Positions 10,529 through 25,800 of a stretch of DNA of 64,000 nt are shown here, piece after piece. The translations under genes and the position numbers were made by a program. The notes beneath the pieces were generated by a model. The model made no database searches. It saw only the letters and a list, made by a program, of their open reading frames with translations, and was not told where the DNA came from. The stretch is from contig CAVYQE010000002.1 in NCBI GenBank assembly GCA_963770565.1, forward strand, positions 656,672 through 720,671. Reading direction: 5' to 3'. The stretch comes from an uncultured Actinomycetota bacterium (GTDB lineage: Bacteria; Actinomycetota; Actinomycetes; JAFAQI01). Numbering within the stretch: position 1 is the stretch's first letter; each line of letters opens with the position of its first letter.

Positions 10529-12736
10529 TTAGTGCGAGAACCGCACCGTCGGCAGCGCGCGGCGTAGCCACCGCGGGCTGTACCAGGCGTTGTGACCTGT
10601 CAGGCGAAGGATCACAGGCAGGATGATCAACCGGATCGACAACGCGTCAAGGAAGACTGCCACCGCCAGGATGACGCCCATCTCCTTGGGTGCGAGCGGG
10701 CCGGACAGCGCGAATGTGAGAAAGACCGCAACCATGACGCCGGCAGCCGCGACGACTACCCGCCCCGAGGTCCGCAACGCGGTGCGCATCGCGTCGTACG
10801 GGTCGCCGGTCGCGTCGTAGTGCTCACGCGCGGCGGACAGCAAGAACAGCGTGTAGTCCATCGCGACGCCCGAGAGCATCGCTCCGAAGAACAGCGGTGC
10901 CCAGGCGTCCACAAACCCCTGCGGCTGGAAGTGAAGCAGCCCGGACAGGTGGCCGTCCTGGAAGATCAGCCGGGCGACACCGAACGCGGCTGCGATCGAG
11001 GCGAGGTTGGTGATCACACCGGCAAACGCGACAAGCGGGCTACCGAGCGCGACGAGCAGTAGCAGGAACCCGAGCAAGATCAGCAGACCGAAAACCAACG
11101 GCGTGCGTGCGCTGAGGACCTTCTGCAGGTCGTGGTTCTCGGCAGCAGCACCGCCGATCAGCGTGCCGGCCGGGAGCTCGGTACGGATCCGGTCGATGGT
11201 CGCTCCGGTCGTCGCGCTGGAAGCGTCTGTGGTTGGGACCGCAAGAAGCATCTCGTACCCGTGACTGGTGCCGCCTGGCATCACAGCAGCGATGCCTCGA
11301 TCGGCGCGAAGCGCACTGGTTGCCTCGCCGACCGACGAGCTCGGCGCCACGATTTGCAGGGTGCCCGGTGCGCCAGGACCGAACGCGCTCACGACCTGTT
11401 CATAGCCGGCGCGTGCCGACTGGTCCGCGGGCACGATCGCGATACTCGGCATCCCGGTGCGCAGGCCCAGCACGGGCCAGGCGAGCATCGCGAGAAGTGC
11501 GACCACAAACGACGCGGCCAGCCAGGGACGGCGGTGCAGCAGACCGCCCCACCGATGGAGCAGATTCTCCAGGCCGCGCGGGAGATGCGGCTCGTGGAAG
11601 TGTCGCCGTTCGAACGCCTTGATCTGCCTTCGCGCCTCGCCGAACGGGAGTGCTCCATTGTTGATCCGCGGGCCGAGTCGGCCGAGCACGGCGGGCAGCA
11701 GCGTCAGCGTCGCGGCAAGTACGGCGACAACGGCGAGCATGATCCCGAGCGCCATACTGCGGAACGCCGGGCTGGGCACGATCAGCACGGTCGACAGCGA
11801 CACGAGGACGGTCAGGCCGCTGAACGCGACCGCCTTGCCAGCGGTTGCCATCGTCTCGCCGACGGCACCAATCGCGTCGTCGCCACCACGGCGGGCCATC
11901 GCGTGACGAAACCGTACGACGATGAACAAGGCGTAGTCGATGCCGAGCGCAAGTGCAAACATCATGGCGAAGTTCAAGGCCCAGATGCTGATCGGTGCCA
12001 CCCTGGTCGCCACTACGAGAGCTCCCGCGGCGCTCAACAGCCCGACGAGGGTCAACATCAGTGGCAGGCCTGCTGCAACGAGGCTGCCGAAGGCAAGCAC
12101 GAGGACGGCCAGCGTGACCGGCCAGGAAAGGATCTCTGAGCGAATCATCGCCGAGTGATTCACCTTGTTGAAGTCCGACCACAACGCGCTGTCACCGGTG
12201 AGCTCCACTGACACCGACGAACTCGACAGCTTCGACAGGGGACCGGTCAGCGCGTCTGCGGCGCGAACCATGTCATTGGCGCCGGCTGCGGCACCGGCTT
12301 GGATCACCCCGGTCCGGCCATCACGTGAGAGGCTTACACCCGCAGTCGGACCGACCACTGTGCTCACTCGAGGGTCGGCGCGCAAGAGTTTCTCGACGCG
12401 GCTCACTGCCGCTTGAGCGGCCGGGTCCGTCGCGATTGGCCGGGTCGAGTCATGAACGACAACCTGCAGTGCAGTGGCGCTCAAACCGGCGAAGTCGCGG
12501 GCGATCACCGCACGAGCCTGGACCGACTGGCTCCCGTTCGCCTGCCACCCGGCTCCCGCTAAGGACGAGTCCACCTTAGGCGCGAACGCGCCGAAGCCAA
12601 CAAGAACGACCAACCAGCCGAGGAGCACGATCCGGAAGTGAGTGGCAGCCCACACGCCCAGCCGGGCCAGCCACGCCGGGCTCGGTGTCGCTGCGGGGCT
12701 CGGCGGGGTCGTCGCGCGCGGGGCGACGGTTGTCAT
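10529..12736 (-). CDS. MMPL-family (RND superfamily) membrane transporter
   Basis: 735 aa. N-terminal TM followed by a large periplasmic loop, twice-repeated six-TM bundles, typical MmpL architecture. Last gene of the cstB-like/cstR-like operon; AAGGAG RBS at 12741-12746. Confidence 0.85.
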   Translation of the reverse strand: MTTVAPRATTPPSPAATPSPAWLARLGVWAATHFRIVLLGWLVVLVGFGAFAPKVDSSLAGAGWQANGSQSVQARAVIARDFAGLSATALQVVVHDSTRPIATDPAAQAAVSRVEKLLRADPRVSTVVGPTAGVSLSRDGRTGVIQAGAAAGANDMVRAADALTGPLSKLSSSSVSVELTGDSALWSDFNKVNHSAMIRSEILSWPVTLAVLVLAFGSLVAAGLPLMLTLVGLLSAAGALVVATRVAPISIWALNFAMMFALALGIDYALFIVVRFRHAMARRGGDDAIGAVGETMATAGKAVAFSGLTVLVSLSTVLIVPSPAFRSMALGIMLAVVAVLAATLTLLPAVLGRLGPRINNGALPFGEARRQIKAFERRHFHEPHLPRGLENLLHRWGGLLHRRPWLAASFVVALLAMLAWPVLGLRTGMPSIAIVPADQSARAGYEQVVSAFGPGAPGTLQIVAPSSSVGEATSALRADRGIAAVMPGGTSHGYEMLLAVPTTDASSATTGATIDRIRTELPAGTLIGGAAAENHDLQKVLSARTPLVFGLLILLGFLLLLVALGSPLVAFAGVITNLASIAAAFGVARLIFQDGHLSGLLHFQPQGFVDAWAPLFFGAMLSGVAMDYTLFLLSAAREHYDATGDPYDAMRTALRTSGRVVVAAAGVMVAVFLTFALSGPLAPKEMGVILAVAVFLDALSIRLIILPVILRLTGHNAWYSPRWLRRALPTVRFSH

Positions 12737-12803
12737 GGTTCTCCTTACATTGCCCGGTAGGGTATCTGTGATCCACTAACGATCAGCTGCGTATTGAGTC
12801 CGA

Positions 12804-13079
12804 TCAGGCCAAGCTGAGAAAGAGCTTCTCCATCTGGTCCGGGCTCAACGGCTCAACCTCACCCGCGGCGGCCGCCGACATGCACTGCCGCATCCCAGAG
12901 GCGAGCAACTTGTAGCCGGCGCGGTCGAACGCCTTGCTCACCGCGGCCATCTGGGTCACGATGTCGGCGCAGTCCCGGCCGTCCTCGAGCATCCGGATCA
13001 CACCGCCGACCTGTCCCTCGATTCGGCGCAGGCGCTTGACGATCTCGTCGGTCGCGCCGTTGTCGAGCTCCATGTGCAT
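12804..13079 (-). CDS. CsoR/CstR/RcnR-family (DUF156) repressor, CstR-like (two Cys, no metal-ligand His)
   Basis: MHMELDNGATDEIVKRLRRIEGQVGGVIRMLEDGRDCADIVTQMAAVSKAFDRAGYKLLASGMRQCMSAAAAGEVE...: conserved RxxGQxxGxxxM, a first Cys in ...DC.DIV.Q..A and a second Cys 29 residues later; no His four residues before the second Cys. GGAAGGA RBS. The upstream part of the track ORF 12804..13367 is not coding. Confidence 0.85.
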   Translation of the reverse strand: MHMELDNGATDEIVKRLRRIEGQVGGVIRMLEDGRDCADIVTQMAAVSKAFDRAGYKLLASGMRQCMSAAAAGEVEPLSPDQMEKLFLSLA

Positions 13080-14745: not shown

Positions 14746-15912
14746 CTACTCGAGCTTGAGCAACGCCATCAGCCGTTCGGCAACCTGACCGCCCGCGTCG
14801 ATCGCGACGTCAACCGCATCGCTCACCCGCAGGTCGTCACGCAGCAACGAGCGGACCTCCGCCATTGTCGTGTCAGCGGCCGCGTTGGGGCGGCCGGCGG
14901 CGGACCGCAGCGCCTCGAGACGATCTGCGGCGCGCACCAGGCACGACCGGTCGTACTGCCAACTCTCAGACCACGGGCGGTCAAGCAACATGGTGCGAAT
15001 GACGCCAGCCGAGTGATCCGCGAGCAGGTCGCGCACTAGCACAAGGTTTCCCACGGACTTCGCCATCTTCACGCCGTCGACATTTACCACTCCGACGCGA
15101 AACCATCGGCGCGCGTAGGGTCGCACTCCGGTCAACGCCTCACCGATCGCCGCCTCGAATGCGTGATGGGGGTAGCGCAGGTCGGCACCGCCGGCGTGGA
15201 TGTCGACGCCCAGCCCGAACGTGCTGAGCACCATCGCAGTGCACCCGGCGTGCCAGCCTGGACGGCCCGGACCCCATGGGCTGTCCCATCGCTGGTCGGC
15301 CCCGGTCGAGGCCTGCCACAAAGCAGCGTCCAGCGGCTGCCGCTTCGCCGGGTCGGCCAGGTTGCCGCCGTACTCCGCGGCGAGCGCGAGCGCATCGGCC
15401 TCGGATAGACCTTCGGACTCGGCGATTCCCGTACCGGGCAGGTAGACGCTGCCCTCGCTGACGTAGGCGGCTCCACTCTCAACGAGGGCCGCCGCGAGCG
15501 CCACCACCTGGCTGATGTGGTGACGAGCGCGAGGCTCGTGATGCGGCCGGGAGACCCGCAGCGCTGCCATGTCAGCATCGAAGTGGTACTGCTGCAGGTA
15601 GGCGAAGGTGTCGTTCGGGGTGCCCGCACGGTCGGCCGCAGCGCTGAGCACGTCGTCGATGTCGGTGACGTTCCGGCAGACGATCGGGGTGGTGCGACTG
15701 TCGGCGAGCACGGCCGTGAGGACGTCGACCCAGACGTACGTCGCGGCGTGACCCAGATGCGTGACGTCGTAGGGGGTGATCCCGCAGACGTAGAGGCGCG
15801 CCCGGTCGATCATGGGCAGCGGCGATCCGGCGATCGACATCGGTTCTGGCGGGGCGGCGGTCGGGTAGACGATCTGCACGCCCCCATGATCCTCCGCGCC
15901 GCGGCGGCTCAT
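14746..15912 (-). CDS. MshC-like cysteine ligase (class I aminoacyl-tRNA-synthetase-like, CysRS paralogue lacking an anticodon-binding domain)
   Basis: HIGH-type motif CGITPYDVTHLGHAATYV and KMSKS-type motif KMAKSVGN. 388 aa. Strong local similarity to my recollection of mycobacterial MshC (FGPGRPGWH..., DMAALRV...). Start overlaps the Nudix stop (ATGA coupling). Confidence 0.75.
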   Translation of the reverse strand: MSRRGAEDHGGVQIVYPTAAPPEPMSIAGSPLPMIDRARLYVCGITPYDVTHLGHAATYVWVDVLTAVLADSRTTPIVCRNVTDIDDVLSAAADRAGTPNDTFAYLQQYHFDADMAALRVSRPHHEPRARHHISQVVALAAALVESGAAYVSEGSVYLPGTGIAESEGLSEADALALAAEYGGNLADPAKRQPLDAALWQASTGADQRWDSPWGPGRPGWHAGCTAMVLSTFGLGVDIHAGGADLRYPHHAFEAAIGEALTGVRPYARRWFRVGVVNVDGVKMAKSVGNLVLVRDLLADHSAGVIRTMLLDRPWSESWQYDRSCLVRAADRLEALRSAAGRPNAAADTTMAEVRSLLRDDLRVSDAVDVAIDAGGQVAERLMALLKLE

Positions 15913-16364
15913 CGACCGGTCGACGTACTTGGTACGGCAGTGAGGAGGAACTCGCGCTGCTCATCGTGCATCAGTGGCGGGAGCTCGCGGAACCAGCCGT
16001 AGGCCCGGGCCGCGTCATCCAGCTCGATCGTCCCGGTCCATTCGGTGACCTTGAAAGCGATGCCCACCGGGCTGTCCAGGTTGTTGTTGTAGTGGCTGGG
16101 GTACTCGATGTACCCGAGGAGCTCGGCGCGATCCACCGATATCCCGAGTTCCCCCCTCGCGACCCGGGCGACCGCGTCGGTCAGCGGCTCTCCGAATCGG
16201 ACCGTGCCGCCCGGCAGGTGCCACAAGCCTCGGCAGGGCTCGGCATCGCGTCTGGTGAGGAGAACCCCGCGCTCGGAGACCAGCACGACTTCCACAGTCA
16301 GCCGGGGAACCTTGCGGTAAATCGTCCAGAACTCCCGCTCGGACAGCGGGTGGTCCACGTCCAT
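15909..16364 (-). CDS. NUDIX hydrolase
   Basis: Nudix box GLWHLPGGTVRFGEPLTDAVARVARGELG. About 151 aa from the ATG at 16364; the longer track ORF would place the operator inside the coding sequence. First gene of a two-gene operon with the MshC-like ligase. Confidence 0.7.
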   Translation of the reverse strand: MDVDHPLSEREFWTIYRKVPRLTVEVVLVSERGVLLTRRDAEPCRGLWHLPGGTVRFGEPLTDAVARVARGELGISVDRAELLGYIEYPSHYNNNLDSPVGIAFKVTEWTGTIELDDAARAYGWFRELPPLMHDEQREFLLTAVPSTSTGR

Positions 16365-16415: not shown

Positions 16416-16431
16416 ATACCCACAGGGGTAT
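16416..16431. promoter_or_regulatory. CsoR/CstR-type operator op2 (ATACCCACAGGGGTAT) in the divergent nudix / sqr intergenic region
   Basis: Perfect TACCC-N4-GGGTA palindrome. 52 bp upstream of Nudix ATG 16364 and 74 bp upstream of SQR ATG 16505. Confidence 0.8.
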
Positions 16432-16504: not shown

Positions 16505-17965
16505 ATGGCTCGTGTCGTTGTCCTCGGCGCTGGGATCTCCGGCCACACCGCCGCACTCCACCTTCGCCGGCTCCTCGCTCGGCGCCACGAGGTCGTCGTC
16601 GTCTCACCGAATGCCGACTACAACTGGATCCCTTCAAACATCTGGGTCGGCGTCGGACGGATGGATGTTGACCAGGTCACCTTCCCGCTTGCGCCCGTGT
16701 ACCGGAGAAAAGGTATCGACTTTCGGCAAGCCCGGGCGGTCGAGCTCTGGCCAGAAGGCGACGACTCGAACGCCCAAGGTGCGGTCGAGATCGAGTACAC
16801 CCTTCCCCATCGGTCCGGCGAGCATGAACGACTCGCCTACGACTTCCTGATCAACGCGACCGGCCCCAAGCTGAACTTTGCGGCGACGCCGGGCCTCGGC
16901 CCGGAAGGAGGACACTCCCTGTCCGTTTGTACGGCACAGCATGCATCGGCCACCGCGGCCAAGTTCGCCGAGGTCATCGCGGCGCTTGAACGCGGCGAGA
17001 CCCGGCGCCTCGTGATCGGGGTAGGCCACGGCACGTGCACGTGCGAGGGCGCCGCTTTCGAGTACGCCTTCAACGTCGAGCACGAGCTACGGTCCCGCGG
17101 CCTCCGCGAGCGCGCCGAGGTGACCTACCTCACCAACGAGCACGAACTCGGTGACTTCGGCGTCGGCGGCATGACGTTCGCGCAGCACGGCTTTCTCACG
17201 ACCAGTCAACTGTGGACGGAGTCGCTGTTCATGGAGCGCGACGTCAAGGCGGTCGTCGGCGCACATGTGCAGCGGGTCGAGCCGGGCAAGTTGTTCTACG
17301 AAACCCTCGACGGCGAGGAGGGCGCGCTGGAGTTCGACTTCGCGATGCTGCTGCCGCCCTTCCGCGGCCAGGATCTCAAGGCGTACGACCACAGGGGCGC
17401 CGACATCACGAGCGAGATGTTTGCCCCGAACGGTTTCCTGAAAGTCGACGCTGACTACAGCCCAAAGCCGTACAACGAGTGGAAGGCGGCAGACTGGCCG
17501 AGGACGTACGTGACTCCGAAGTACCCGAACGTGTTCGGTGTGGGGATCGCATTTGCCCCACCGCACCCGATTTCGAAGCCACGAACCTCACCCGGCGGCA
17601 CCGTGATCTCGCCGGCTCCGCCCCGCACCGGAATGCCGTCAGGGCTGATGGGACGTCAGGTGGCACGCAGCATCGCGGACATGATCAACACCGGCGCGAC
17701 GACGCCCACCCACACTGCGTCGATGGCGGACATGGGTGCGGCCTGTGTGGCATCGGCCGGCGCTGGCTTTCGCAAGGGCACGGCGGCCTCCATGACGATG
17801 TACCCAGTCGTCCCGGACACCGACCGGTTCCCCGGCTACGGCCGCAGCCTCACCGATACGACCGGCGAGCTCGGACTAGCCGGGCACTGGATCAAGCACA
17901 TGCTGCACGTGATGTTCATCTACAAGGCCAAGGGCCGTCCAGGCTGGTCCCTGATCCCGGAGTGA
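16505..17965 (+). CDS. sqr: Sulfide:quinone oxidoreductase (FAD-dependent pyridine nucleotide-disulfide oxidoreductase family)
   Basis: N-terminal Rossmann VVVLGAGISGHTAA; conserved SQR Cys region GTCTCEGAAFEYA; 486 aa. AAGGAG RBS. Confidence 0.85.
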   Translation: MARVVVLGAGISGHTAALHLRRLLARRHEVVVVSPNADYNWIPSNIWVGVGRMDVDQVTFPLAPVYRRKGIDFRQARAVELWPEGDDSNAQGAVEIEYTLPHRSGEHERLAYDFLINATGPKLNFAATPGLGPEGGHSLSVCTAQHASATAAKFAEVIAALERGETRRLVIGVGHGTCTCEGAAFEYAFNVEHELRSRGLRERAEVTYLTNEHELGDFGVGGMTFAQHGFLTTSQLWTESLFMERDVKAVVGAHVQRVEPGKLFYETLDGEEGALEFDFAMLLPPFRGQDLKAYDHRGADITSEMFAPNGFLKVDADYSPKPYNEWKAADWPRTYVTPKYPNVFGVGIAFAPPHPISKPRTSPGGTVISPAPPRTGMPSGLMGRQVARSIADMINTGATTPTHTASMADMGAACVASAGAGFRKGTAASMTMYPVVPDTDRFPGYGRSLTDTTGELGLAGHWIKHMLHVMFIYKAKGRPGWSLIPE

Positions 17966-18270: not shown

Positions 18271-19104
18271 ATGAGGCAGGAGTCACACCCACCGGGCCTG
18301 GCCCGAATCGACCGAACCGGGTCGGTGTCGCTGTGGGCGCAGGTCCGCGCTGATCTGGAGCGACGGCTCGCGGTCGATGAGTTCGACGGTGACTTCCCCG
18401 GCGAACTGGAGCTGACCGCGCAATACGCGGTCAGCCGGCACACCATTCGGGAGGCGTTGCGTCACCTGCGCGCGGAAGGCCTCGTCATCAGTGAGCGCGG
18501 ACGCCGCTCTCGCCTCGCCGACCACGCTGAAATCGAGCAACCGCTCGGCGCGCTCTACAGCCTGTTCGCCTCGGTCGAGGCCGCCGGTCTGGAGCAGCGC
18601 AGCGTCGTCCGCGCCCTTGATCTCCGCGCCGACGGAGTCATCGCGCCGCGACTCGACGTCGAGGAGTCCACCCCACTGCTCTATCTGGAACGGCTCCGTC
18701 TGGCCGGCGAGAAGCCGTTCGCGATGGACCGCGTCTGGCTCCCCGCGTCAGTCGCCGAACCGCTGCTCGACGCGGACTTCACCCACACTGCCCTGTACGA
18801 CGAACTCGCCGCGCGCTGCGGATTCCGCCTGACCGGCGGCCGGGAACACATCCGCGCGGTCCTTCCGACCACGGCCGAACGCAGACTGCTCGAACTCGAC
18901 GACACCACCGCACTGTTCGCGATCGAACGCCTTGGTGAACGGGCCGGCCAGCCAATGGAGTGGCGCCACACCCTGGTCCGTGGCGACCGATTCGCCCTCA
19001 CTGCCGACTTCACCGCCCACACCGGCTACCGGCTCGAGCTGTCCGGCCCCGAACGACAGGCTTCCAACCTCGCGACCGCATCGCAAGGACACGCCCATGG
19101 CTGA
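18271..19104 (+). CDS. GntR-family regulator with UTRA effector domain (HutC/FarR subfamily)
   Basis: N-terminal GntR HTH (...ELELTAQYAVSRHTIREALRHLRAEGLVISERGRRSRLA), C-terminal UTRA-like domain. 277 aa. Embedded in the sqr-rhodanese-tauE gene string. Confidence 0.8.
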   Translation: MRQESHPPGLARIDRTGSVSLWAQVRADLERRLAVDEFDGDFPGELELTAQYAVSRHTIREALRHLRAEGLVISERGRRSRLADHAEIEQPLGALYSLFASVEAAGLEQRSVVRALDLRADGVIAPRLDVEESTPLLYLERLRLAGEKPFAMDRVWLPASVAEPLLDADFTHTALYDELAARCGFRLTGGREHIRAVLPTTAERRLLELDDTTALFAIERLGERAGQPMEWRHTLVRGDRFALTADFTAHTGYRLELSGPERQASNLATASQGHAHG

Positions 19105-19450
19105 CCCCTTCGATCCGCAGACTCGGGTCGACGAAGTCAGCCCGGCCGCAGCGCGGGACCTCGCCGATGCCGGTGCCGTGCTCGTCGATGTCCGTGAGCC
19201 GGACGAATGGGCCGCGGGCCACATCGCCGACGCACAGCACATCCCGCTCGGCGACCTCGACCCTGACCTGTTCGTCGGCGGCCCGCTCGTAGTCGCTGTG
19301 TGCCGCTCGGGGCACCGCTCCGGCACCGCGGCGCTGCGATTGCACGACGCGGGAGTCGACGTCCGCAACATGACGGGCGGAATGAAGGCCTGGCAGGCCG
19401 ACGGCCTGCCCGTCACCCGCGACGACGGCACCACCGGCTCAGTCGCGTGA
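19097..19450 (+). CDS. Single-domain rhodanese sulfurtransferase
   Basis: 117 aa with active-site loop CRSGHRS. Overlaps the gntR stop by 8 nt and the tauE start by 4 nt. Confidence 0.8.
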   Translation: MADPFDPQTRVDEVSPAAARDLADAGAVLVDVREPDEWAAGHIADAQHIPLGDLDPDLFVGGPLVVAVCRSGHRSGTAALRLHDAGVDVRNMTGGMKAWQADGLPVTRDDGTTGSVA

Positions 19451-20370
19451 CGCTCGCCTTGGCACTTCTCCTCGGTGCCGTCATCGGGCTCAGCCTGGGG
19501 GCCCTTGGTGGTGGCGGTTCGATCCTCACCGTCCCGGCGCTCGTGTATGCGCTCGGCGAGAAGGCGTCGGCAGCCACGACCGGCAGCCTGATCATTGTCG
19601 GGATCACCGCGCTCGTTGGTTCCTTCGGCCACGCACGAGCGGGCCGGGTGCGCTGGCGCGCCGGGTTCGGTTTCGGTCTCGCCGGGGTCGCCTCGAGCTC
19701 CCTCGGGACAGCGCTCAACCGTCATATCAACCCGGATGTGCTGCTGCTCGCCTTCGCCGGCCTGGTGGTGATCGCAGCGTCAGGTATGTGGCGTCATGCC
19801 GGGGCTGCCATCGCGGTATCTGGTGATCAGCTCGAGCTTCGCGTCGCCGAGCCTGCTTTGGCGGTGGACGGCTCAAACGCTTCGAGGAGCGCAGCGGTCG
19901 AACTACCCGGCGACCGAGGCATCCGTCCCACACCGGCCAGCCAGCCGGAGGGATCGATCGACTTCCCCGGTGGCTCAACCACCCACGATTCCCTGAGAAC
20001 CGTCCTCAAGGTGGTCGCCGCCGGTCTTATCGTCGGCTTTCTCACCGGGTTCTTCGGTGTTGGCGGCGGCTTCGTCATCGTGCCCGCCCTGGCCCTCGTA
20101 CTCGCCTACCCGATGCCTGAGGCGATCGGAACGTCCCTGCTGATCATCGCCATCAACTCAGCAGCCGCCCTCGGCGAACGAGCCGGCCAACATCAGACAG
20201 TTCATTGGCACGTGATCGCGCCGTTTACGGTCGCGGCTGTTGCCGCCAGCCTCGCCGGCAAGCAGGTCGCCGACCGAGTCGACGGACCAAGGCTGACGCG
20301 CGCCTTCGTCATTCTTCTGATCGCGGTCGCGATCTACACCGCGGTCCGCAGCATCGTCGGCCTCAGCTGA
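19447..20370 (+). CDS. TauE/SafE (DUF81) sulfite/sulfur-compound exporter family membrane protein
   Basis: Duplicated 4-TM halves, each with a glycine-rich motif: LGALGGGGSILTVPAL and FFGVGGGFVIVPAL. GTG start overlapping the rhodanese stop. Confidence 0.8.
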   Translation: MTLALALLLGAVIGLSLGALGGGGSILTVPALVYALGEKASAATTGSLIIVGITALVGSFGHARAGRVRWRAGFGFGLAGVASSSLGTALNRHINPDVLLLAFAGLVVIAASGMWRHAGAAIAVSGDQLELRVAEPALAVDGSNASRSAAVELPGDRGIRPTPASQPEGSIDFPGGSTTHDSLRTVLKVVAAGLIVGFLTGFFGVGGGFVIVPALALVLAYPMPEAIGTSLLIIAINSAAALGERAGQHQTVHWHVIAPFTVAAVAASLAGKQVADRVDGPRLTRAFVILLIAVAIYTAVRSIVGLS

Positions 20371-20495
20371 GCAGACGGGAGACACCTGCTGTCACACGAC
20401 ACGACGGGCAAGGGTGGAGACTTCAACTGGGCACTAGCGGGGACTTCCAACTGGCCATAGTTGGGAATAGACGCCGGGCGAGTGCCGTTGAATCC

Positions 20496-20513
20496 TATAC
20501 CCCTAGGGGTATA
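20496..20513. promoter_or_regulatory. CsoR/CstR-type operator op3 (TATACCCCTAGGGGTATA)
   Basis: Perfect 18-bp palindrome of the form TACCC-N4-GGGTA. 17 bp upstream of the GGAGGAG RBS and ATG 20530 of the DUF2892-like gene. Confidence 0.85.
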
Positions 20514-20529
20514 CTGGAGGAGAAACGCC

Positions 20530-20739
20530 ATGGAACTCGTACGCTTTATGCAGACTTCGATAGGAAGAAGCCTTCGGGCCGTGCTCGGGGTGGTCCTGAT
20601 CGCCGTCGGTGTCGTCCTTGGTGGTGCCTGGCTAGCGCTGGCTGGTATCGGTCTCGTTCCCCTTATCGTCGGATCGGCGGGTCTTTGCCTCATCGCCCCT
20701 CTACTCCACGCTCCGATCCGTGGAGCTCAGAGATCATGA
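20530..20739 (+). CDS. Small two-TM membrane protein, DUF2892/YgaP-C-terminal-like
   Basis: 69 aa: MELVRFMQTSIGRSLRAVLGVVLIAVGVVLGGAWLALAGIGLVPLIVGSAGLCLIAPLL; two hydrophobic helices and a Cys near the second. Strong RBS. This family commonly partners rhodaneses. Confidence 0.45.
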   Translation: MELVRFMQTSIGRSLRAVLGVVLIAVGVVLGGAWLALAGIGLVPLIVGSAGLCLIAPLLHAPIRGAQRS

Positions 20740-20794
20740 GTGAGGCGCGCTCCGATTTCGGCAACTCACACATGACAGTTGACGGGACACGAGC

Positions 20795-21400
20795 GTGACC
20801 ACGCTGGACCGGCAAGGGTGGGATGAGCGGTACCGGGACACCGAGCTGGTGTGGGGCTCTGGCCCCAACCGATTTCTCGTGGACCATGTGACGAACCTGA
20901 CGCCAGGGACTGCGCTGGACGTGGCGTGCGGTGAGGGTCGCAACGCCATCTGGCTTGCGCATCAGGGATGGCGGGTGGTCGGGGTCGACTTCTCGTCCGT
21001 TGGTCTTGACAAGGCGCGAGGGCTGGCAGCGGAGACTGGTGTCACGGCGGAGTGGGTGCAGGGTGACCTCACCACATGGGAGCCACCGAAAAGCTATGAC
21101 CTCGTCGTTGTCATGTACCTGCATTTGCCAGGCGCTGTGCGTCACAGTGTCTTTGCGCGGATGGCAAAGTCGGTGGCACCGGGCGGGACCATGCTCGTGG
21201 TAGGTCATGACATGTTGAACCTCACCGAGGGAACCGGCGGTCCACAGAATGCTGCCGTTCTCTACGGGCCTGAGGACGTTGTCGGCGATATCGGCTCGGT
21301 ACTTGCGATCGAGAGAGCGGAGCGTGTTCACCGGCCGGTCTCCGGTTCGGAGGGCGAGGCGATGGCCATCGACGTCCTGGTTCGCGCTCACCGATCCTGA
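20795..21400 (+). CDS. Class I SAM-dependent methyltransferase (TehB/thiopurine-methyltransferase-like)
   Basis: Motif I LDVACGEGRNAIWLA, motif post-I VVGVDFS. 201 aa. Downstream of op3 in the same orientation. Confidence 0.8.
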   Translation: MTTLDRQGWDERYRDTELVWGSGPNRFLVDHVTNLTPGTALDVACGEGRNAIWLAHQGWRVVGVDFSSVGLDKARGLAAETGVTAEWVQGDLTTWEPPKSYDLVVVMYLHLPGAVRHSVFARMAKSVAPGGTMLVVGHDMLNLTEGTGGPQNAAVLYGPEDVVGDIGSVLAIERAERVHRPVSGSEGEAMAIDVLVRAHRS

Positions 21401-21413
21401 ACCTTTACAGGCC

Positions 21414-22127
21414 TTAGGCGGTGGCAGATGGCGCACGGAGCCACCGCAACCATTCGGTGTCGCCCATTAGGTCCAGCCGGCGCCAGAGCACGGGGTTATC
21501 CGTAGCCTGGCTTGCGTGGAGGGCGATGGCGCGATGCTGAATAGAACGGTCGACATGAAGCACGATGTCGACCTCGTCCTCGCTGCAGCCGGCAAAGCAG
21601 GTGCCGAAGGCGGCGTTGAGGGAATCGGCCACCGAGTCCGGGATCGACCAAGCAATCACAGGCAGATCAAGTAACTCGGCCGCACGCAAGGCTGCTTCTG
21701 TCGCCCGTTGATGGTCGCGGTGTCCCGTGATCCCACCGAGATCGAAGACAAGTAGCCCATGAGCACCAACCGCGTTGACATATCCAACGACATCGTCGAC
21801 CAGGATGTCGAGTTCGATGGAGTCGAGACTTCCATCAGCGTGGTCCAGCAGCCGCACATCGCTGACCGTGAGTGCATCGGCGGCGGCGGCAAGCTCGGCG
21901 ACCCGGACGACACGAAGGTCACCTGACGTCCCGTGCAGGGCTGACGCCTCGCCGTGAGTGAAACTGAGCACGGCGGTCGATGTGCCGGCGGCCGTCAAAC
22001 TAGCGATGACAGCGCCCAAGCCGAAGGACTCGTCGTCGGGGTGGGCGCACACAGCAACTACGGACGGCAGCCCCACAGCATCCAGCGTCATATCGCAATC
22101 TGACGCGCTGGGACGCCGCGCGGTCAT
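21414..22127 (-). CDS. LmbE/PIG-L-family N-acetylglucosaminyl deacetylase (MshB/Mca-like)
   Basis: Signature AHPDDE (VCAHPDDESF) and HxDH (GHRDHQ). 237 aa. Start overlaps the thioredoxin stop (ATGA), so co-transcribed with trx. Confidence 0.8.
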   Translation of the reverse strand: MTARRPSASDCDMTLDAVGLPSVVAVCAHPDDESFGLGAVIASLTAAGTSTAVLSFTHGEASALHGTSGDLRVVRVAELAAAADALTVSDVRLLDHADGSLDSIELDILVDDVVGYVNAVGAHGLLVFDLGGITGHRDHQRATEAALRAAELLDLPVIAWSIPDSVADSLNAAFGTCFAGCSEDEVDIVLHVDRSIQHRAIALHASQATDNPVLWRRLDLMGDTEWLRWLRAPSATA

Positions 22128-22492
22128 GACACGACGTTGGACTTGGCGACGAGGCGGTGGATCTCGTCCATGTCGAGGTCACGCACCTTCCCAATGAGCT
22201 CGTCCAGTGCAGCAGCCGGCAGTGCTCCGGGCTCCCTGTAGACGATCACCTCGTCGCGCAAGATCATGAGGGTCGGGATCGACATGATGCCGAACCCAGA
22301 GGCCATCTCTTGCTCGCCCTCAATGTCCACTTTGGCGAACAAGAGATCCGAGTGAGTTTCAGAGGCCTTCTCGAACACGGGGGCGAATGCCCTGCAGGGT
22401 CCGCACCACGACGCCCAGAAGTCCACCAGCACGATCTCATTGCTGGTCACCACCGTGTCGAAATCCCCTTTGGTAACAGTCACCGTGGCCAC
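22124..22492 (-). CDS. trxA: Thioredoxin
   Basis: WCGPC active site (WASWCGPCRAF). 122 aa. GTG start with GGGAAGGG RBS. op4 lies 18 bp upstream. Confidence 0.9.
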   Translation of the reverse strand: MATVTVTKGDFDTVVTSNEIVLVDFWASWCGPCRAFAPVFEKASETHSDLLFAKVDIEGEQEMASGFGIMSIPTLMILRDEVIVYREPGALPAAALDELIGKVRDLDMDEIHRLVAKSNVVS

Positions 22493-22509
22493 TGGCGCCC
22501 TTCCCTGGG

Positions 22510-22525
22510 TACCCCCTGGGGTATA
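22510..22525. promoter_or_regulatory. CsoR/CstR-type operator op4 (TACCCCCTGGGGTATA) upstream of trx-lmbE
   Basis: TACCC-N4-GGGTA palindrome 18 bp upstream of the trx GTG. Confidence 0.8.
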
Positions 22526-22575
22526 GTCTACAAGGACGGCCCGCCTGGTGTCATTCCCCCTCGCACCACAATGAG

Positions 22576-22588
22576 ATACCCGGGGTAT
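22576..22588. promoter_or_regulatory. Weak/atypical operator-like palindrome op5 (ATACCCGGGGTAT)
   Basis: Half-sites present but the spacer is 1 instead of 4. Lies 51 bp from op4 in the same intergenic region. Could be an auxiliary site or coincidence. Confidence 0.25.
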
Positions 22589-22648
22589 GACCGGGGTGGG
22601 GTCGCGTTGGACCGGTCGCTCGGTGGCGCTGATGGCGTCGTCTTGCTG

Positions 22649-23278
22649 CTATTGCGACGGACTAGCCGGATTCGCGGCCACGCCGAGGGTGAACCAGCTC
22701 CACGGTTTCGGTCCGTTGGCGTAGCGCCGCTCGATCCGCTCGATCACAAAGCCGGCATCGCCGACGAGAGCCGGAGCATCACGTGTGAGGTGGCAACCAT
22801 CTCCCAGTCGGCGCTGCCACGGGTCGAGACGGTATTGCCACCGGGCCACCGAGGCGTCGGGAGAGAGTCCGTGTTCGAGGAAATGGAAGCGGCCTCCCGG
22901 CCGGAGCACCCGGCGGAGTTCGGACAGAACCTTGGTGGGGTCGGCGACGGTGCAGAGCGTGAACGTAGAGAGCGCTGCGTCGCAGCTGGCGTCGTCAAGG
23001 GGGATCGCCTGGCCGTCGAGACCGATGTGCTCGACGGGTGTCCTGCCGGCCATGACCCGCTTCGTAGCCAATCTTCGTGCGAGCGCGGCCGGTTCGACTG
23101 CTAACACCTTCTCCACTTCTGGTGGATAGTGCTCGACGTTGAGACCGGAACCGAATCCGATCTCGACGACCCGGCCAGCGAGTCCCTCCGTCACCTCGGC
23201 GCGCCAGCCTCGCAGAGCGCCCGTGCTACATGCCCGGTCTACCAGGCGGGGAAGGACCTGCTCGCGGTAGAAGCTCAC
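22649..23278 (-). CDS. Class I SAM-dependent methyltransferase (UbiE/Methyltransf_11-like)
   Basis: Motif I VVEIGFGSGLN, motif II/III region PGGRFHFLEH. The first ~240 codons of the track ORF 22649..23998 are Arg/His/Pro-rich wrong-frame sequence. No ATG; GTG start assumed at 23278. Confidence 0.65.
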   Translation of the reverse strand: MSFYREQVLPRLVDRACSTGALRGWRAEVTEGLAGRVVEIGFGSGLNVEHYPPEVEKVLAVEPAALARRLATKRVMAGRTPVEHIGLDGQAIPLDDASCDAALSTFTLCTVADPTKVLSELRRVLRPGGRFHFLEHGLSPDASVARWQYRLDPWQRRLGDGCHLTRDAPALVGDAGFVIERIERRYANGPKPWSWFTLGVAANPASPSQ

Positions 23279-23397
23279 GGTCGCGACGCTACCGGTGCCG
23301 CCGGAGGACAACACCGCTGTGAGTGTCCGTGATCGAGGCGGGCGTCGTTTGGAGACTCCCTTGCGGTTGGCGTAGCGCGGATCTGCGCAACAAACCG

Positions 23398-24084
23398 TCA
23401 AGCGACGCGGATTGCCGCCTCGATCTCGACTCGGGCCAGCTCCTTGGTGCAGAAGAACCAGTCCTCGCACTCGATGCCGTCGATCCCGTCGTCCATGCGC
23501 TCCTTGGCGGTGCCGCATGATCCGGCGGTGGGGACGATGACCCGCTCGCCGGGCTGCCAGTCGGCGGGGGTGGCGACTGAGAAATGGTCGGCGGTCTGCA
23601 GCGCCTTGACCACCCGCAACAGTTCGGGGAAATTGCGCCCGATGCTGAGCGGGTAGTAGATGATCGTCCGGATCACGCCCTCGGGGTCGATGACAAACAC
23701 CGCGCGTACCGCCTTGGTGGAGTCCTCGCCGGGCATGATCATCCCGTACTTGCGGGCCACCTCCATCGTGATGTCCTCGATGAGGGGGAAGGTGACCTCG
23801 ACGTTCTTCATGTCGCGGTAGGTGATCTTGTCCTTGATGGTGCGCAGCCAGGCGATGTGGCTGTAGAGGCCGTCGACCGACAAGCCCACGAGGTCGGTGT
23901 TGTAGGCCGCGAACTGCTCTTGCATCGACGCGAAGGTCATGAACTCGCTGGTACAGACCGGCGTGAAGTCGGCTGGGTGCGAGAACAAGATGACCCACTT
24001 GCCGACGTAGTCGGACGGGAAGTTGATCTCCCCTTGTGTCGTCACGGCGGTAAAGGATGGCGCCGGGTCGCCGATGCGCGGCAT
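23398..24084 (-). CDS. 1-Cys peroxiredoxin (Prx6-like, AhpC/TSA family)
   Basis: Peroxidatic Cys motif FTPVCTSEF; MPRIGDPAPSF N-terminus; 228 aa from ATG 24084. The track extension to 24186 has low GC3. Confidence 0.85.
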   Translation of the reverse strand: MPRIGDPAPSFTAVTTQGEINFPSDYVGKWVILFSHPADFTPVCTSEFMTFASMQEQFAAYNTDLVGLSVDGLYSHIAWLRTIKDKITYRDMKNVEVTFPLIEDITMEVARKYGMIMPGEDSTKAVRAVFVIDPEGVIRTIIYYPLSIGRNFPELLRVVKALQTADHFSVATPADWQPGERVIVPTAGSCGTAKERMDDGIDGIECEDWFFCTKELARVEIEAAIRVA

Positions 24085-24185
24085 CGTCGGGACAAGGGCA
24101 GGCGTCTCAATACTGGTCACGGTGCGGCTTCCTCTGTTCAAATCGTCGGTGGCCCCGCAAAAGGGGGATCTACTATGACCAACCA

Positions 24186-24202
24186 ATACCCATGGGGGTA
24201 TA
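24186..24202. promoter_or_regulatory. CsoR/CstR-type operator op6 (ATACCCATGGGGGTATA) upstream of the peroxiredoxin
   Basis: TACCC-N4-GGGTA palindrome about 100 bp upstream of prx ATG 24084. Confidence 0.7.
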
Positions 24203-24990
24203 TTCCGCGTGATCGCCAGTTCCGTGACGCCCGCATCCGCATCTTTGCCCCCTGCTCGTCCAGCGTTCTACGTGGCGCGGCTCCGCGGCTCTCCCCGCGG
24301 GTCAGCACTGGCTGATCCAGGCGCCCGCGGTGGTGTTCGCGGCCCTTCGTCGGGTCGCGCAGCACGATCCGCTGCTGCTGGCCAACGGGGTCAATCTGGC
24401 CGAAGCTGAGGCCGGCTTCGACGGTTTGAACCCAAGCCCACTCTGGGATAGTGCACCTGTGGTCTGGTCAATGCGGTTCGGCGCAGCGACGGCCAGGATC
24501 CCGTCGTTGAGTCGATCTGCTGCATTCGATGGACACGCGCCGACGCTGCGCGACGGCAGGCGCTGTGGCGCCGTCGTGCTTCTCGTCGTGGCACTAGCGC
24601 TCTTCGTCCGTGACGTTCCTGCGCTTACGACCGACAGCGGCGGTGTTCATCCGGCCGTGAGCCATGCGCAGTTCGTCGCACATGGCGCCCTCGGCGTCGA
24701 CGCCGCCACCCTCACACGCAGCCTGGATCGCGGCGGCGCCCGCTCCGCGGAGCCCGCCGTTCAGGCCGATTCGCTCAGAGAACGCCCGGTCGATGCACCT
24801 TGGGCGAAACTGCCCGCGACCCAATGGGTGCCACCGCCTCGATCGTTGCCAACCGCCCGCGCACGCGCGCCCTGAAGCCGGTCTTCCTCCCTTCGTACTT
24901 AGTCACTGCGGCACTGCACGCGCACCTTCGGCCTTGGTAACGGCCAGCGTCCGCGCGGCCGGTGAATCAACTTCGCAGAAAGGACCGGGC

Positions 24991-25800
24991 GTGTCAGCTA
25001 GCAACACCACATCCCCGACGACAGACAGAATCGCACGTAGCGCAGCTATCTCCGAGCCCGAGCGGAGCCCGACCGGTGTCTCGTCCCGCCTCGCCGCCAT
25101 CCGCCGGGCCGCTCCGGAGGCGCTACTCGTTGTGGCCTTGTACATGGCATACACCGCGACCCGAAATCTCCTCCCGTCAGCACGTCGGAGCGCGATCGCG
25201 CGAGGACTGGCCGTGGAAAGGTTCGAGGGTTCGCTGCACCTTGACCCTGAACGCGCGCTCAACCAATTCGTGGCAAATCACGCCGTGTTGGCGAGCACGT
25301 GTGATTACTACTACGCGGTCGCCCACTTCGCGGTGACCCTCGCGGTGATGATGCTTCTATACCGACGAAGTCGGCCGACGGCACGTCGACTGGCAGCGGC
25401 CTGGTACGTCACCAACCTGCTGGCGCTGCTGGGCTTCTGGCTCTACGCGCTGGCGCCACCCAGGCTCCTTCCCGGCCGCGCATACGTCGACACTGTCGTC
25501 GTGTTCCATACCTGGGGGAGCTGGGGGACGGGTGCGGTGGCGTCGGCCTCGAACCAATACGCCGCGATGCCCAGCCTGCACCTCGCCTGGGCGAGTTGGT
25601 GCACGGTCGGAATCTGGCACCTGACCCGACGCCGCTCGGTGCGACTCCTTGGCGTCGCGTATCCCCTGGCGACGCTGTTCGTCGTGCTCGGCACCGCAAA
25701 CCACTATCTGCTCGACGCCTTCGCGGGGGTCGTGGCGATGGCCATCGGGCTTGCGGTGGTGTGGTACGCACAAGAAACGATGGGGGGCTCGATCGGATGA
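24991..25800 (+). CDS. PAP2-superfamily membrane protein (AUR1/IPC-synthase-like phosphatase fold), island paralogue
   Basis: Motifs NQYAAMPSLHLAWA and ANHYLLD. Paralogous to 36671..37588 (NQYAAMPSLHVGWA, ANHYLLDVVAG). GTG start at 24991 with AAAGGA RBS. Confidence 0.65.
   Translation: MSASNTTSPTTDRIARSAAISEPERSPTGVSSRLAAIRRAAPEALLVVALYMAYTATRNLLPSARRSAIARGLAVERFEGSLHLDPERALNQFVANHAVLASTCDYYYAVAHFAVTLAVMMLLYRRSRPTARRLAAAWYVTNLLALLGFWLYALAPPRLLPGRAYVDTVVVFHTWGSWGTGAVASASNQYAAMPSLHLAWASWCTVGIWHLTRRRSVRLLGVAYPLATLFVVLGTANHYLLDAFAGVVAMAIGLAVVWYAQETMGGSIG

Follow-up and report, generated by a model that had tools for sequence, protein, structure and literature searches.

The enzymes MddH (2024) and MddM1/MddM2 (2025), of ~205-210 amino acids, belong to the class I methyltransferases and are either cytosolic or associated with membranes; they convert H2S to methanethiol and then to dimethylsulfide (DMS), and also accept short alkyl thiols (PMC11445057, PMC12904073). 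MddM1 (210 amino acids) belongs to the UbiG type and MddM2 (204 amino acids) to the UbiE type. Exposure to H2S, methanethiol, methionine or H2O2 raises transcription of both, and both shield E. coli from these stresses; MddM1, TbMddM2 and MddH are inactive on coenzyme A (CoA), cysteine and glutathione (PMC12904073). The predicted share of Actinomycetota genomes is 51% for MddM1, 22% for MddA, 4.6% for MddH and 1.2% for MddM2 (PMC12904073). MddH is 31-34% identical to TMT1A/B, is without their N-terminal helix, carries Glu63 in place of their Asp98 and has no obvious link to sulfur genes (PMC11445057); no regulator is named for MddH or MddM1/MddM2 (PMC11445057, PMC12904073). Here we analyse two genes, MT1 and MT2, that encode putative S-adenosylmethionine (SAM)-dependent methyltransferases and lie behind predicted operators of a CstR-type, persulfide-sensing repressor in a 64-kb stretch (hereafter, the window) of contig CAVYQE010000002.1 from an uncultured Actinomycetota bacterium.

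To our knowledge, the described cst/CstR regulons contain no genes for a SAM methyltransferase, thioredoxin, peroxiredoxin, MshC-like ligase, PIG-L deacetylase or Nudix hydrolase, and the CstR, SqrR and BigR regulons that we know of are described as oxidation and efflux systems with no methylation step. Our literature searches combining CstR or persulfide repressors with methyltransferases returned nothing relevant, in agreement with an earlier annotation made from the letters of the window (the sequence-only reading), which held that methyltransferases are not part of described cst/SQR clusters. Because H2S-inducible methyltransferases for H2S and methanethiol have been published from Actinomycetota, the chemistry itself is not new. 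What appears to be new, as judged from predicted sites, is that genes for S-methyltransferase-like enzymes are tied directly, by cis-regulatory sites, to a persulfide sensor. We lean towards the view that MT1 and MT2 are effectors of a persulfide-sensing CstR-type regulon of an Acidimicrobiales bacterium and that they carry out a sulfide-derepressed S-methylation of H2S or small thiols, and MT1 may represent a further, uncharacterised family of such enzymes.

Predicted operators and their conservation

We identified four exact copies of the core palindrome TACCC-N4-GGGTA in the 64 kb of the window and a fifth copy with one mismatch (Table 1), compared with no exact copy in 20 dinucleotide shuffles of the window. 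Every copy is intergenic and heads an operon of the cluster at 12.8-24.2 kb. The copy named op3 precedes a pair formed by the gene for a small DUF2892 membrane protein and MT1, and op6 precedes a peroxiredoxin gene and MT2. The same operator stands before the SQR gene, before the operon of the persulfide-dioxygenase/rhodanese fusion and the repressor, and before the thioredoxin-deacetylase operon. The copy at 16417 shows that sulfide-oxidation genes are under the same predicted switch as the methyltransferases. The sequence-only reading had put a DUF2892-like gene between op3 and MT1 and a peroxiredoxin between op6 and MT2, and the Pfam and NCBIfam matches bear this out; both methyltransferase open reading frames (ORFs) were also recovered where it had placed them, MT1 being TPMT/TehB-like and MT2 UbiE-like by Pfam.

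The full operator is a 16-bp palindrome, ATACCC-N4-GGGTAT. Its flanking A at -1 and T at +14, both outside the searched core, are kept in 61 of the 70 distinct sites across loci, and this conservation of bases that formed no part of the search pattern argues that the sites are real. Sigma-70 promoter-like hexamers, as consensus matches only, overlap op3 on the plus strand (20488-20515) and abut the operator at 22510 on the minus strand (22554-22525), with the operator directly downstream. At op3 the predicted -10 element leaves almost no leader before the ribosome-binding site, which speaks against reliance on these hexamers. No intrinsic terminator was predicted in the 55-nt gap between DUF2892 and MT1 or in the 119-nt gap between the peroxiredoxin gene and MT2, making co-transcription plausible in both cases, and no promoter was predicted in the 119-nt gap, across which MT2 has to be co-transcribed for its place behind op6 to hold.

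A single CsoR-family gene is present in the window. The encoded protein has two cysteines 29 residues apart and a glycine at the position of the ligand histidine of Cu(I)-sensing CsoR. The same cysteine spacing is found in Mycobacterium tuberculosis CsoR (Cys36/Cys65) and Staphylococcus aureus CstR (Cys31/Cys60). P-type ATPase and CopZ motifs were not found in a motif scan of the 64-kb window, and we rejected a copper-sensing CsoR regulon because the ligand histidine is missing and the window holds no copper genes. The repressor is instead encoded together with SQR, a metallo-beta-lactamase (MBL)-rhodanese fusion, a rhodanese and TauE, and its presumed sites are GC-rich pseudo-palindromes, as is usual for the CsoR family (PMC10318464). 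Together, the cysteine pair, the missing histidine, the operators and the gene content support a CstR-type, sulfane-sulfur-sensing regulon, and the CstR-type cluster assumed in the sequence-only reading is borne out. We presume the protein encoded at 12804-13079 to be the regulator of the operators.

The closest public relative of the window, L013 (contig CAWESO010000018.1), is from a metagenome-assembled genome (MAG) of an uncultured Acidimicrobiales bacterium; its MT1, MT2, DUF2892, thioredoxin and PIG-L deacetylase proteins are 83-90% identical to ours and the local gene order is kept. A metagenome scan with MT1 returned 80 further loci at 50-78% identity (0.40 Mb in total), of which 28 contain 57 exact operators, compared with 0 in 20 shuffles. 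Nineteen of these 57 sites lie no more than 400 nt upstream of the MT1 start, with eight at -46 to -65. Twenty-nine loci have flanks of 1 kb or more on either side of MT1; an operator was found within 3 kb in 15 of them, a CsoR-family gene in 12, a thioredoxin homolog in 10, a PIG-L homolog in 4 and a Nudix gene in 1. A CoA-disulfide-reductase (CoADR)-rhodanese fusion stands beside MT1 in 8 loci and a class V aminotransferase in 11. The operator motif also heads MT1 homologs in L001, L004, L013, L019, L034 and L041.

Individual loci illustrate the link. L004 is a MAG contig with an MT1 of 60% identity; here an MT1-Nudix-MT2 operon has an exact operator 13-26 nt ahead of it, and the Nudix and MT2 proteins of this operon are 61% and 76% identical to their window counterparts; downstream of the operon are a second operator and a CoADR-rhodanese fusion, and two CsoR-family genes are nearby. 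L096 has the same operator-MT1-Nudix-MT2 operon. Two operators separate MT1 from a divergent MMPL gene in L001 (MT1 77% identity), where the neighbours of MT1 are DsbA-DUF2892, an SQR-like gene, DsrC, a DsrE-like gene and TauE. The DUF2892-MT1 pair is kept in L013 (83% identity) and L093 (76%). Judged by these predicted operators, MT1 is a core member of the regulon in many lineages and is tightly coupled to it. Taken alone, its membership is highly probable, and the earlier assignment of MT1 to a CstR-type regulon thus extends, through the conserved operator link, to many genomes.

MT1 also has recurrent neighbours. In several unrelated contigs (L027, L034, L041, L095, L143 and L162) it is adjacent to a PIG-L gene on the same strand, in either order, and in the window, L013 and L093 the two genes are convergent neighbours. 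This adjacency suggests a functional tie beyond co-regulation. A divergent Nudix gene adjoins MT1/PIG-L in L027, L034 and L041. A separate module of MT1, a CoADR-rhodanese, a CsoR-family repressor and a class V aminotransferase recurs in L096, L100, L101, L114-L116, L121 and L123 (also in L004 and L019); its CoADR-rhodanese proteins are 81-100% identical among loci, its aminotransferase is cysteine-desulfurase-like, and each transcription unit has an operator.

The corresponding genome scan with MT2 covered the best 80 loci, at 53-91% identity, with Nocardia, Rhodococcus and Nocardioides at the lower end and no verified enzyme among them. Exact operators are present in 13 of them (23 sites, compared with 0.05 in shuffles), and nearly all of the operator-bearing loci are from Acidimicrobiales-type MAGs at 60% identity or more; the one exception, at 56%, has no cluster genes near. 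The loci at 53-57% identity carry two one-mismatch sites and one exact site, with no cluster genes near. We found no exact operator or cluster gene within 6 kb of the MT2 homologs of Nocardia, Rhodococcus, Nocardioides, Marmoricola and Pseudonocardia, the sole match among these being a single one-mismatch site in L088, and two further MT2 homolog contexts also lacked operators and cluster genes. MT2 is beside MT1 in L128 and within 6 kb of it in L013, L019, L027, L034, L041 and L159, and in L017 and L036 it has its own operator-like site nearby, with one mismatch each. As far as predicted sites tell, MT2 occurs widely and has been brought into the regulon in some Acidimicrobiales only. The sequence-only reading had counted it in the regulon without this restriction: its position behind op6 and the operator-led operon that it shares with MT1 in L004 and L096 are in keeping with that claim, whereas a sulfur context is missing around most homologs, L013 lacks the peroxiredoxin-MT2 pair and the two genes are 119 nt apart in the window.

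Families of MT1 and MT2

Both proteins have the marks of class I methyltransferases, with ACGEG and an invariant D65 in MT1, and GFGSG and an invariant E62 in MT2; their AlphaFold2 models (pLDDT 93 and 90, respectively) consist of alternating strands and helices. A profile-profile alignment of the two is confined to a 104-column Rossmann core at 16% identity, which indicates two different families. JGI product names assign the homologs of MT1 to COG2227 and those of MT2 to COG2226. MT1 and MT2 both score under all NCBIfam equivalog cut-offs, and this excludes true TehB, UbiE/MenG, ArsM and PmtA.

The best Pfam assignment of MT1 is Methyltransf_25 (1.9e-19). It also exceeds the cut-offs of Pfam TehB (33.7 bits, cut-off 20.4) and of Pfam TPMT (PF05724; 39.8 bits, cut-off 26), the latter with residues 5-75 only, on model positions 2-79 of 218. 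Its scores against the TehB equivalogs are 44.3 bits of the required 303 (NF008992), 42.6 of 218 (NF008405) and 36 of 219.5 (TIGR00477). We rejected MT1 as a true TehB on account of these scores and of its 16-20% identity to TehB structures. In the family alignment, a TPMT-like N-terminus (WDERY...ELVW...PNRFL) and a TehB-like CGEGRN motif are accompanied by an invariant, family-specific NL-EG-GGPQ loop. MT1 homologs form 6931 clusters at 90% identity (E <= 1e-10), many of them from Acidimicrobiales MAGs, and 330 clusters at 50% identity with E <= 1e-30.

Among solved structures, MT1 is closest to Slr1183 of Synechocystis (31% identity; phmmer 2.7e-27, Foldseek 8.6e-17); this protein comes from structural genomics, and our literature search returned no paper on its function. 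Further structural neighbours are Rv0560c, TehB, Ecm18, NmbA and halide/thiol methyltransferases; TehB structures are among the top Foldseek matches of the model (TM ~0.73), and plant thiol/halide methyltransferases match at ~1e-9. Based on these similarities, we consider MT1 a candidate S-methyltransferase for H2S or small thiols (chalcogenides).

MT2 matches Pfam Methyltransf_11 (3.3e-17) and Ubie_methyltran (34.3 bits, cut-off 20.1). Invariant in its family are EIGFGSGLN, a Glu62 that closes strand 2 and, towards the C-terminus, a W-Q-x-R-x-x-P-x-Q...D-G-C-H-L-T-R block; the N-terminus of MT2 forms two amphipathic helices with no hydrophobic segment. The homologs form at least 7986 clusters (90% identity, E <= 1e-10), again with many from Acidimicrobiales MAGs; like that of MT1, the family is large and shows good conservation. 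The best solved match, 8ys9, is a phosphatidylethanolamine N-methyltransferase (25% identity by Foldseek, profile positions 34-159); the alignment is of the SAM core only and leaves the conserved C-terminal DGCHLTR region of MT2 outside. From its family features, MT2 is a candidate MddH/TMT1-like thiol S-methyltransferase. A presumed sequence of human METTL7B gave 35% identity over 178 amino acids in BLASTP with MT2, and DGCHLTR of MT2 resembles the DGCxLTRE motif of human METTL7A/B; we take both as unconfirmed leads only.

Two other identities of MT2 were tried and rejected, and a third is improbable. Its scores are far below the cut-offs for the quinone methylases UbiE/MenG (TIGR01934, 39.9 bits against 158; NF001241, 37.3 against 327), and BLASTP with E. 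coli UbiE aligned only 54 residues. A PmtA phospholipid N-methylase was rejected by NF045882 (19.1 bits against 390) and by the confinement of the 8ys9 match to the core. An identity with MddM2 is improbable, since MT2 has neither signal peptide nor transmembrane (TM) helix and since the accessions differ in Nocardia brasiliensis ATCC 700358, where the MT2-family protein is UniRef100_K0ESA9 and the MddM2 homolog listed for the strain is K0ER09 (PMC12904073, Table S6). From this one genome, and thus indirectly, MT2 is probably outside the MddM2 orthogroup, to which M. poriferae MddM2 and T. bispora D6Y5L2 belong.

Homologs of MT2 occur on plasmids. One (L173; 42.6% identity, frameshifted in a record annotated almost throughout as hypothetical) is on a plasmid of Vreelandella (Halomonas) sulfidaeris (AP019515.1, 200040-214648). 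A persulfide-dioxygenase-type metallo-beta-lactamase and two YeeE/YedE-like membrane proteins are encoded ~2 kb away, and mer genes are found at ~7 kb. This is a hint that sulfide genes may lie close to MT2/MddH-like genes in Gammaproteobacteria too, the homolog being at most a putative mddH. Full-length homologs at 42-45% identity are also found on pSymA of Sinorhizobium meliloti 1021 (NC_003037.1, 156812-157411) and on 56 other Sinorhizobium replicons; they are on symbiotic megaplasmids and absent from the plasmid gene table in many records.

Gene content of the cluster

The operators and genes of the cluster are collected in Table 1. The peroxiredoxin may start at a GTG at 24120, which has an AGGAAG ribosome-binding site, or at an ATG at 24087. 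The PIG-L deacetylase is convergent with MT1 and scores below the BshB, MshB and Mca cut-offs.

Table 1. Predicted operators and genes of the sulfide cluster, with positions in the window
Feature	Coordinates	Strand	Remarks
MMPL transporter	10529-12736	-	
CsoR-family repressor	12804-13079	-	Pfam PF02583, 5.7e-24
Metallo-beta-lactamase/double-rhodanese fusion, persulfide-dioxygenase type	13108-~14508	-	
Operator, one mismatch	14505		
MshC-like cysteine ligase	14746-15912	-	271 bits against MshC cut-off 485
Nudix hydrolase	15909-16352	-	
Operator TACCCACAGGGGTA	16417-16430		between divergent Nudix/MshC-like ligase operon (-) and SQR (+)
SQR-like flavoprotein	16505-17965	+	
GntR/UTRA regulator	18271-19104	+	
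Rhodanese	~19097-19450	+	
TauE	~19450-20370	+	
op3 TACCCCTAGGGGTA (extended ATACCCCTAGGGGTAT)	20498-20511		19 nt before DUF2892 start codon
DUF2892 small membrane protein	20530-20739	+	69 amino acids; first gene behind op3; Pfam PF11127 YgaP-like_TM/DUF2892, 27.2 bits against cut-off 25.3
MT1, class I SAM methyltransferase	20795-21400	+	201 amino acids; GTG start
PIG-L family deacetylase	21414-22127	-	237 amino acids; second gene of thioredoxin operon; Pfam PF02585, 3.2e-23
Thioredoxin	22124-22492	-	122 amino acids; WCGPC; first gene behind 22510 operator; TIGR01068, 102 bits against 96.8
Operator TACCCCCTGGGGTA	22510-22523		18 nt before thioredoxin start; 126 nt downstream of MT2 stop
MT2, class I SAM methyltransferase, UbiE/Methyltransf_11 type	22649-23278	-	209 amino acids; GTG start
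1-Cys peroxiredoxin	23398-24120	-	first gene behind op6; AhpC-TSA + 1-cysPrx_C; NCBIfam PRK13189, 329 bits against 211
op6 TACCCATGGGGGTA	24187-24200		~65 nt before peroxiredoxin start

The GC content of the window is 66-72% and falls to 63-64% at 20-24 kb; third-position GC bias is weaker in this methyltransferase-bearing segment (20000-24000) than elsewhere in the window. In L013, an insertion sequence (IS)-like fragment (5700-5880) stands where the peroxiredoxin gene adjoins MT2 in the window. Taken together, the low GC content and the IS-like fragment suggest recent rearrangement or acquisition.

A second palindrome, ATACCCCGGGTAT (22576-22588), is found in the interval from the 22510 operator to the MT2 stop and has the same half-sites, TACCC/GGGTA, with a spacer of 1 nt as against 4. 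Promoter-like hexamers on the plus strand (24175-24204) overlap op6 and are directed rightwards; beyond them, ~900 nt (24200-25100) hold no convincing gene, followed by a PAP2_3 membrane protein (ORF 24664-25800; Pfam match from ~25.2 kb). It is possible that op6 serves as a control region for divergent transcription. The MMPL start at 12736 is preceded only by a degenerate site with two mismatches, TGCCCGGTAGGGTA (12751-12764); elsewhere, an MMPL transporter gene is recurrently beside operators and MT1 or MT2 (L001 at 7900-7945, L019, L035, L118 and L159). The GntR/UTRA regulator gene is mid-cluster, just upstream of rhodanese-TauE, and has no CstR-type operator in front, making a second layer of control possible.

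Proposed role and comparison with known systems

We propose that sulfide would be oxidised to sulfane sulfur, which would cross-link the two cysteines of the repressor and thereby take it off the operators. DUF2892-MT1 and peroxiredoxin-MT2 would then be derepressed alongside SQR, persulfide dioxygenase and thioredoxin, and cytosolic MT1 and MT2 would use SAM for the S-methylation of HS-, methanethiol, other small thiols and perhaps also small persulfides. Methanethiol and dimethylsulfide, the products, would be uncharged, less reactive, membrane-permeant and volatile, and could leave the cell with no transporter. Such a route of sulfide disposal would need neither oxygen nor quinone and would run parallel to SQR and persulfide dioxygenase. 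Where MT1 lies beside a CoA-persulfide-reductase-type enzyme, it could use up the H2S released by that enzyme, and the recurrence of this pairing fits S-methylation. The published induction by H2S, methanethiol and H2O2 is likewise what one would expect of genes expressed along with thioredoxin and peroxiredoxin genes under the control of a thiol-based sensor. By analogy with the MddH, MddM1/MddM2 and TMT1 literature, we infer that the chemistry with the best support is a methylation of sulfide or thiols that gives volatile forms.

Several observations weigh against this proposal. Slr1183, the closest solved relative of MT1, has no known function, and the structural neighbours Rv0560c, NmbA, Ecm18 and TehB methylate N or C atoms or tellurite. 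Orthology of MT1 and MT2 to the proven sulfide methyltransferases MddM1, MddM2 and MddH is at most putative, and MT2, as set out above, is probably not of the MddM2 orthogroup. No operator is present in 67 of the 80 best MT2 loci, and none of the cluster genes of the window was found at the MT2 loci of 53-57% identity. In L013, the closest relative, the position upstream of MT2 is taken by the IS-like fragment and not by a peroxiredoxin gene, in an otherwise unchanged arrangement. Finally, MT1 is often in one operon with PIG-L, and a low-molecular-weight thiol or its conjugates could be the substrate.

This last point keeps modification of a ligase/deacetylase thiol among the alternatives, and it is the one that survives best. 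The methyltransferases would here act on a low-molecular-weight thiol, conjugate or persulfide from the co-regulated MshC-like ligase, PIG-L deacetylase and Nudix hydrolase, either by N-methylation, as NmbA does with bacillithiol, or by S-methylation of the thiol persulfide. Indeed, the ligase-Nudix operon, which has its own operator at 16417, and the thioredoxin-PIG-L operon look like a sulfide-inducible branch that makes or recycles such a thiol; a Nudix gene lies between MT1 and MT2 in L004 and L096, and NmbA (9ri2) is among the structural neighbours of MT1. However, about half of the well-flanked MT1 loci have an operator and CsoR-family genes with no ligase or deacetylase near, the similarity to NmbA is confined to the SAM-binding core, the characterised MddM1, TbMddM2 and MddH do not methylate CoA, cysteine or glutathione (PMC12904073), and such a thiol is at most a putative product of this organism. 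We therefore judge a thiol substrate of this kind to be unlikely.

The second alternative concerns MT2 only, which would be a general-purpose methyltransferase (of lipids, quinones or xenobiotics) that lies by chance between two CstR-controlled operons, leaving MT1 as the one methyltransferase of the regulon. It would account for the scarcity of operators and cluster genes at MT2 loci noted above, for homologs at 39-45% identity on Sinorhizobium, Burkholderia and Methylocystis replicons, for the best solved match (8ys9) being a phosphatidylethanolamine N-methyltransferase, and for the 119-nt gap to a peroxiredoxin gene that is missing as a neighbour in L013. Against it, the MT1-Nudix-MT2 operon lies directly behind an operator in L004 and L096, one-mismatch sites are found near MT2 in L017 and L036, MT2 is repeatedly within 6 kb of MT1, the 8ys9 match is of the core only with PmtA and UbiE equivalog scores far under their cut-offs, and neither terminator nor promoter is predicted in the gap. 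We consider an accidental position of MT2 quite improbable.

The weakest alternative, that MT1 is a detoxifier of Se or Te species of the TehB/bacterial-TPMT type (for selenide and selenite- or tellurite-derived adducts) under a CstR that reacts with these oxyanions, draws on the Pfam TehB and TPMT scores, on the TehB structures among the top Foldseek matches, on the mixed seleno- and tellurotrisulfides formed by S. aureus CstR and on the dimethylselenide made by bacterial TPMT, but is very unlikely given equivalog scores of 42-44 bits against 218-303, the 16-20% identity to TehB structures, and recurrent MT1 neighbours that are all sulfur enzymes (SQR, CoADR-rhodanese, rhodanese, class V aminotransferase and TauE) and include no gene for resistance to tellurite or selenite. 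As soft chalcogenide nucleophiles are alike in behaviour, this alternative overlaps with S-methylation and differs from it in substrate range more than in kind.

Overall, placement of the methyltransferases in the predicted CstR-type regulon is supported, strongly for MT1 and moderately for MT2. If the operators are functional, sulfide methylation would become a regulated arm of the sulfide stress response, and two fields would be joined: that of the persulfide repressors and that of MddA, MddH and MddM1/2, which have mostly attracted interest as a source of climate-active DMS and for which no sensor is named. The response would come with a defined repressor, an operator of 16 bp and partner genes that can be tested. 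The combination of operator and MT1 could serve as a genomic marker for predicting sulfide-inducible production of methanethiol and DMS, applicable to the uncultured Acidimicrobiales from which many of the matching peat, permafrost and soil contigs come. More speculatively, and with considerable doubt, we suggest that MT1 might found an uncharacterised family of sulfide/persulfide S-methyltransferases (TPMT/TehB/Slr1183-like, and apart from MddA, MddH, MddM1/2 and TMT1) that would be wired directly to CstR in peat and soil Acidimicrobiia and other Actinomycetota, and that would form, with MT2, thioredoxin, PIG-L and Nudix, a methylation branch of reactive-sulfur detoxification. In that event, the emission of methanethiol and DMS from peat and soil habitats would be a regulated output of sulfide stress.

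Among described methyltransferases, MddM1/MddM2 offer a parallel by description: they are from the same phylum and of similar size, with one UbiG-type (COG2227) and one UbiE-type enzyme per genome. MddM1 resembles MT1 in size (210 compared with 201 amino acids), in being cytosolic and in the COG2227 name carried by MT1 homologs, this too being a comparison of descriptions only. The homolog criterion of the MddM1 study is E <= 1e-30 to M. poriferae MddM1 (PP661493), and the cluster accessions of our MT1 and MT2 relatives do not overlap with its Tables S5/S6 (PMC12904073). For MddM2, unlike MT2, a signal peptide and a TM helix are described, and no operator, regulator or gene neighbourhood is described for MddM1/MddM2 (PMC12904073), in contrast to the genes studied here. 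MT2 looks like MddH, likewise by description: both are cytosolic, UbiE-type COG2226 class I enzymes (~205 amino acids for MddH) with GxGxG, without an N-terminal membrane helix, and with Glu63 of MddH corresponding to Glu62 of MT2. Membership of MddH is defined by > 45% identity to H. alimentaria MddH, and MT2 was compared on other features only; it differs in its place in a CstR-type cluster in some Acidimicrobiales. TMT1A/TMT1B (METTL7A/B) differ from MT2 in being membrane-anchored and eukaryotic, and in having Asp98 where MT2 has Glu62.

MT1 shares with TPMT, TehB, plant HOL and TMT1, and Slr1183 a compact fold of ~200 amino acids, with the W-x-x-R-Y...W...PN-x-F-L pattern of TPMT and a CGEGRN motif comparable to GCGNGRN of TehB. 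The substrates of the TPMT, TehB and halide/thiol enzymes are soft nucleophiles such as HS-, thiols, SCN-, halides and Se/Te species. MT1 differs from TPMT and TehB in its own invariant N-L-x-E-G-x-G-G-P-Q loop and in that its first 75 residues only are covered by the TPMT model. The bacillithiol N-methyltransferase NmbA of Chlorobaculum tepidum (PDB 9ri2) is also a small class I enzyme and a structural neighbour; its substrate is a low-molecular-weight thiol, and MT1 often adjoins a BshB/MshB-like PIG-L deacetylase. In contrast, only the SAM-binding core aligns between the two (residues 37-132, 23-24% identity, TM ~0.6), and the tightest partners of MT1 are the operator and repressor and not genes of thiol biosynthesis.

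On the regulatory side, the closest systems are the S. aureus cst operon and the Enterococcus faecalis CstR regulon, with which the window shares a two-cysteine CsoR-family repressor, GC-rich pseudo-palindromes, SQR, a persulfide dioxygenase-rhodanese, TauE and rhodanese. The CoADR-rhodanese of the CoA-persulfide-reductase type is common to cst/CstR systems and MT1-related loci. In the window, by contrast with those systems, the predicted regulon is spread over at least five operators.

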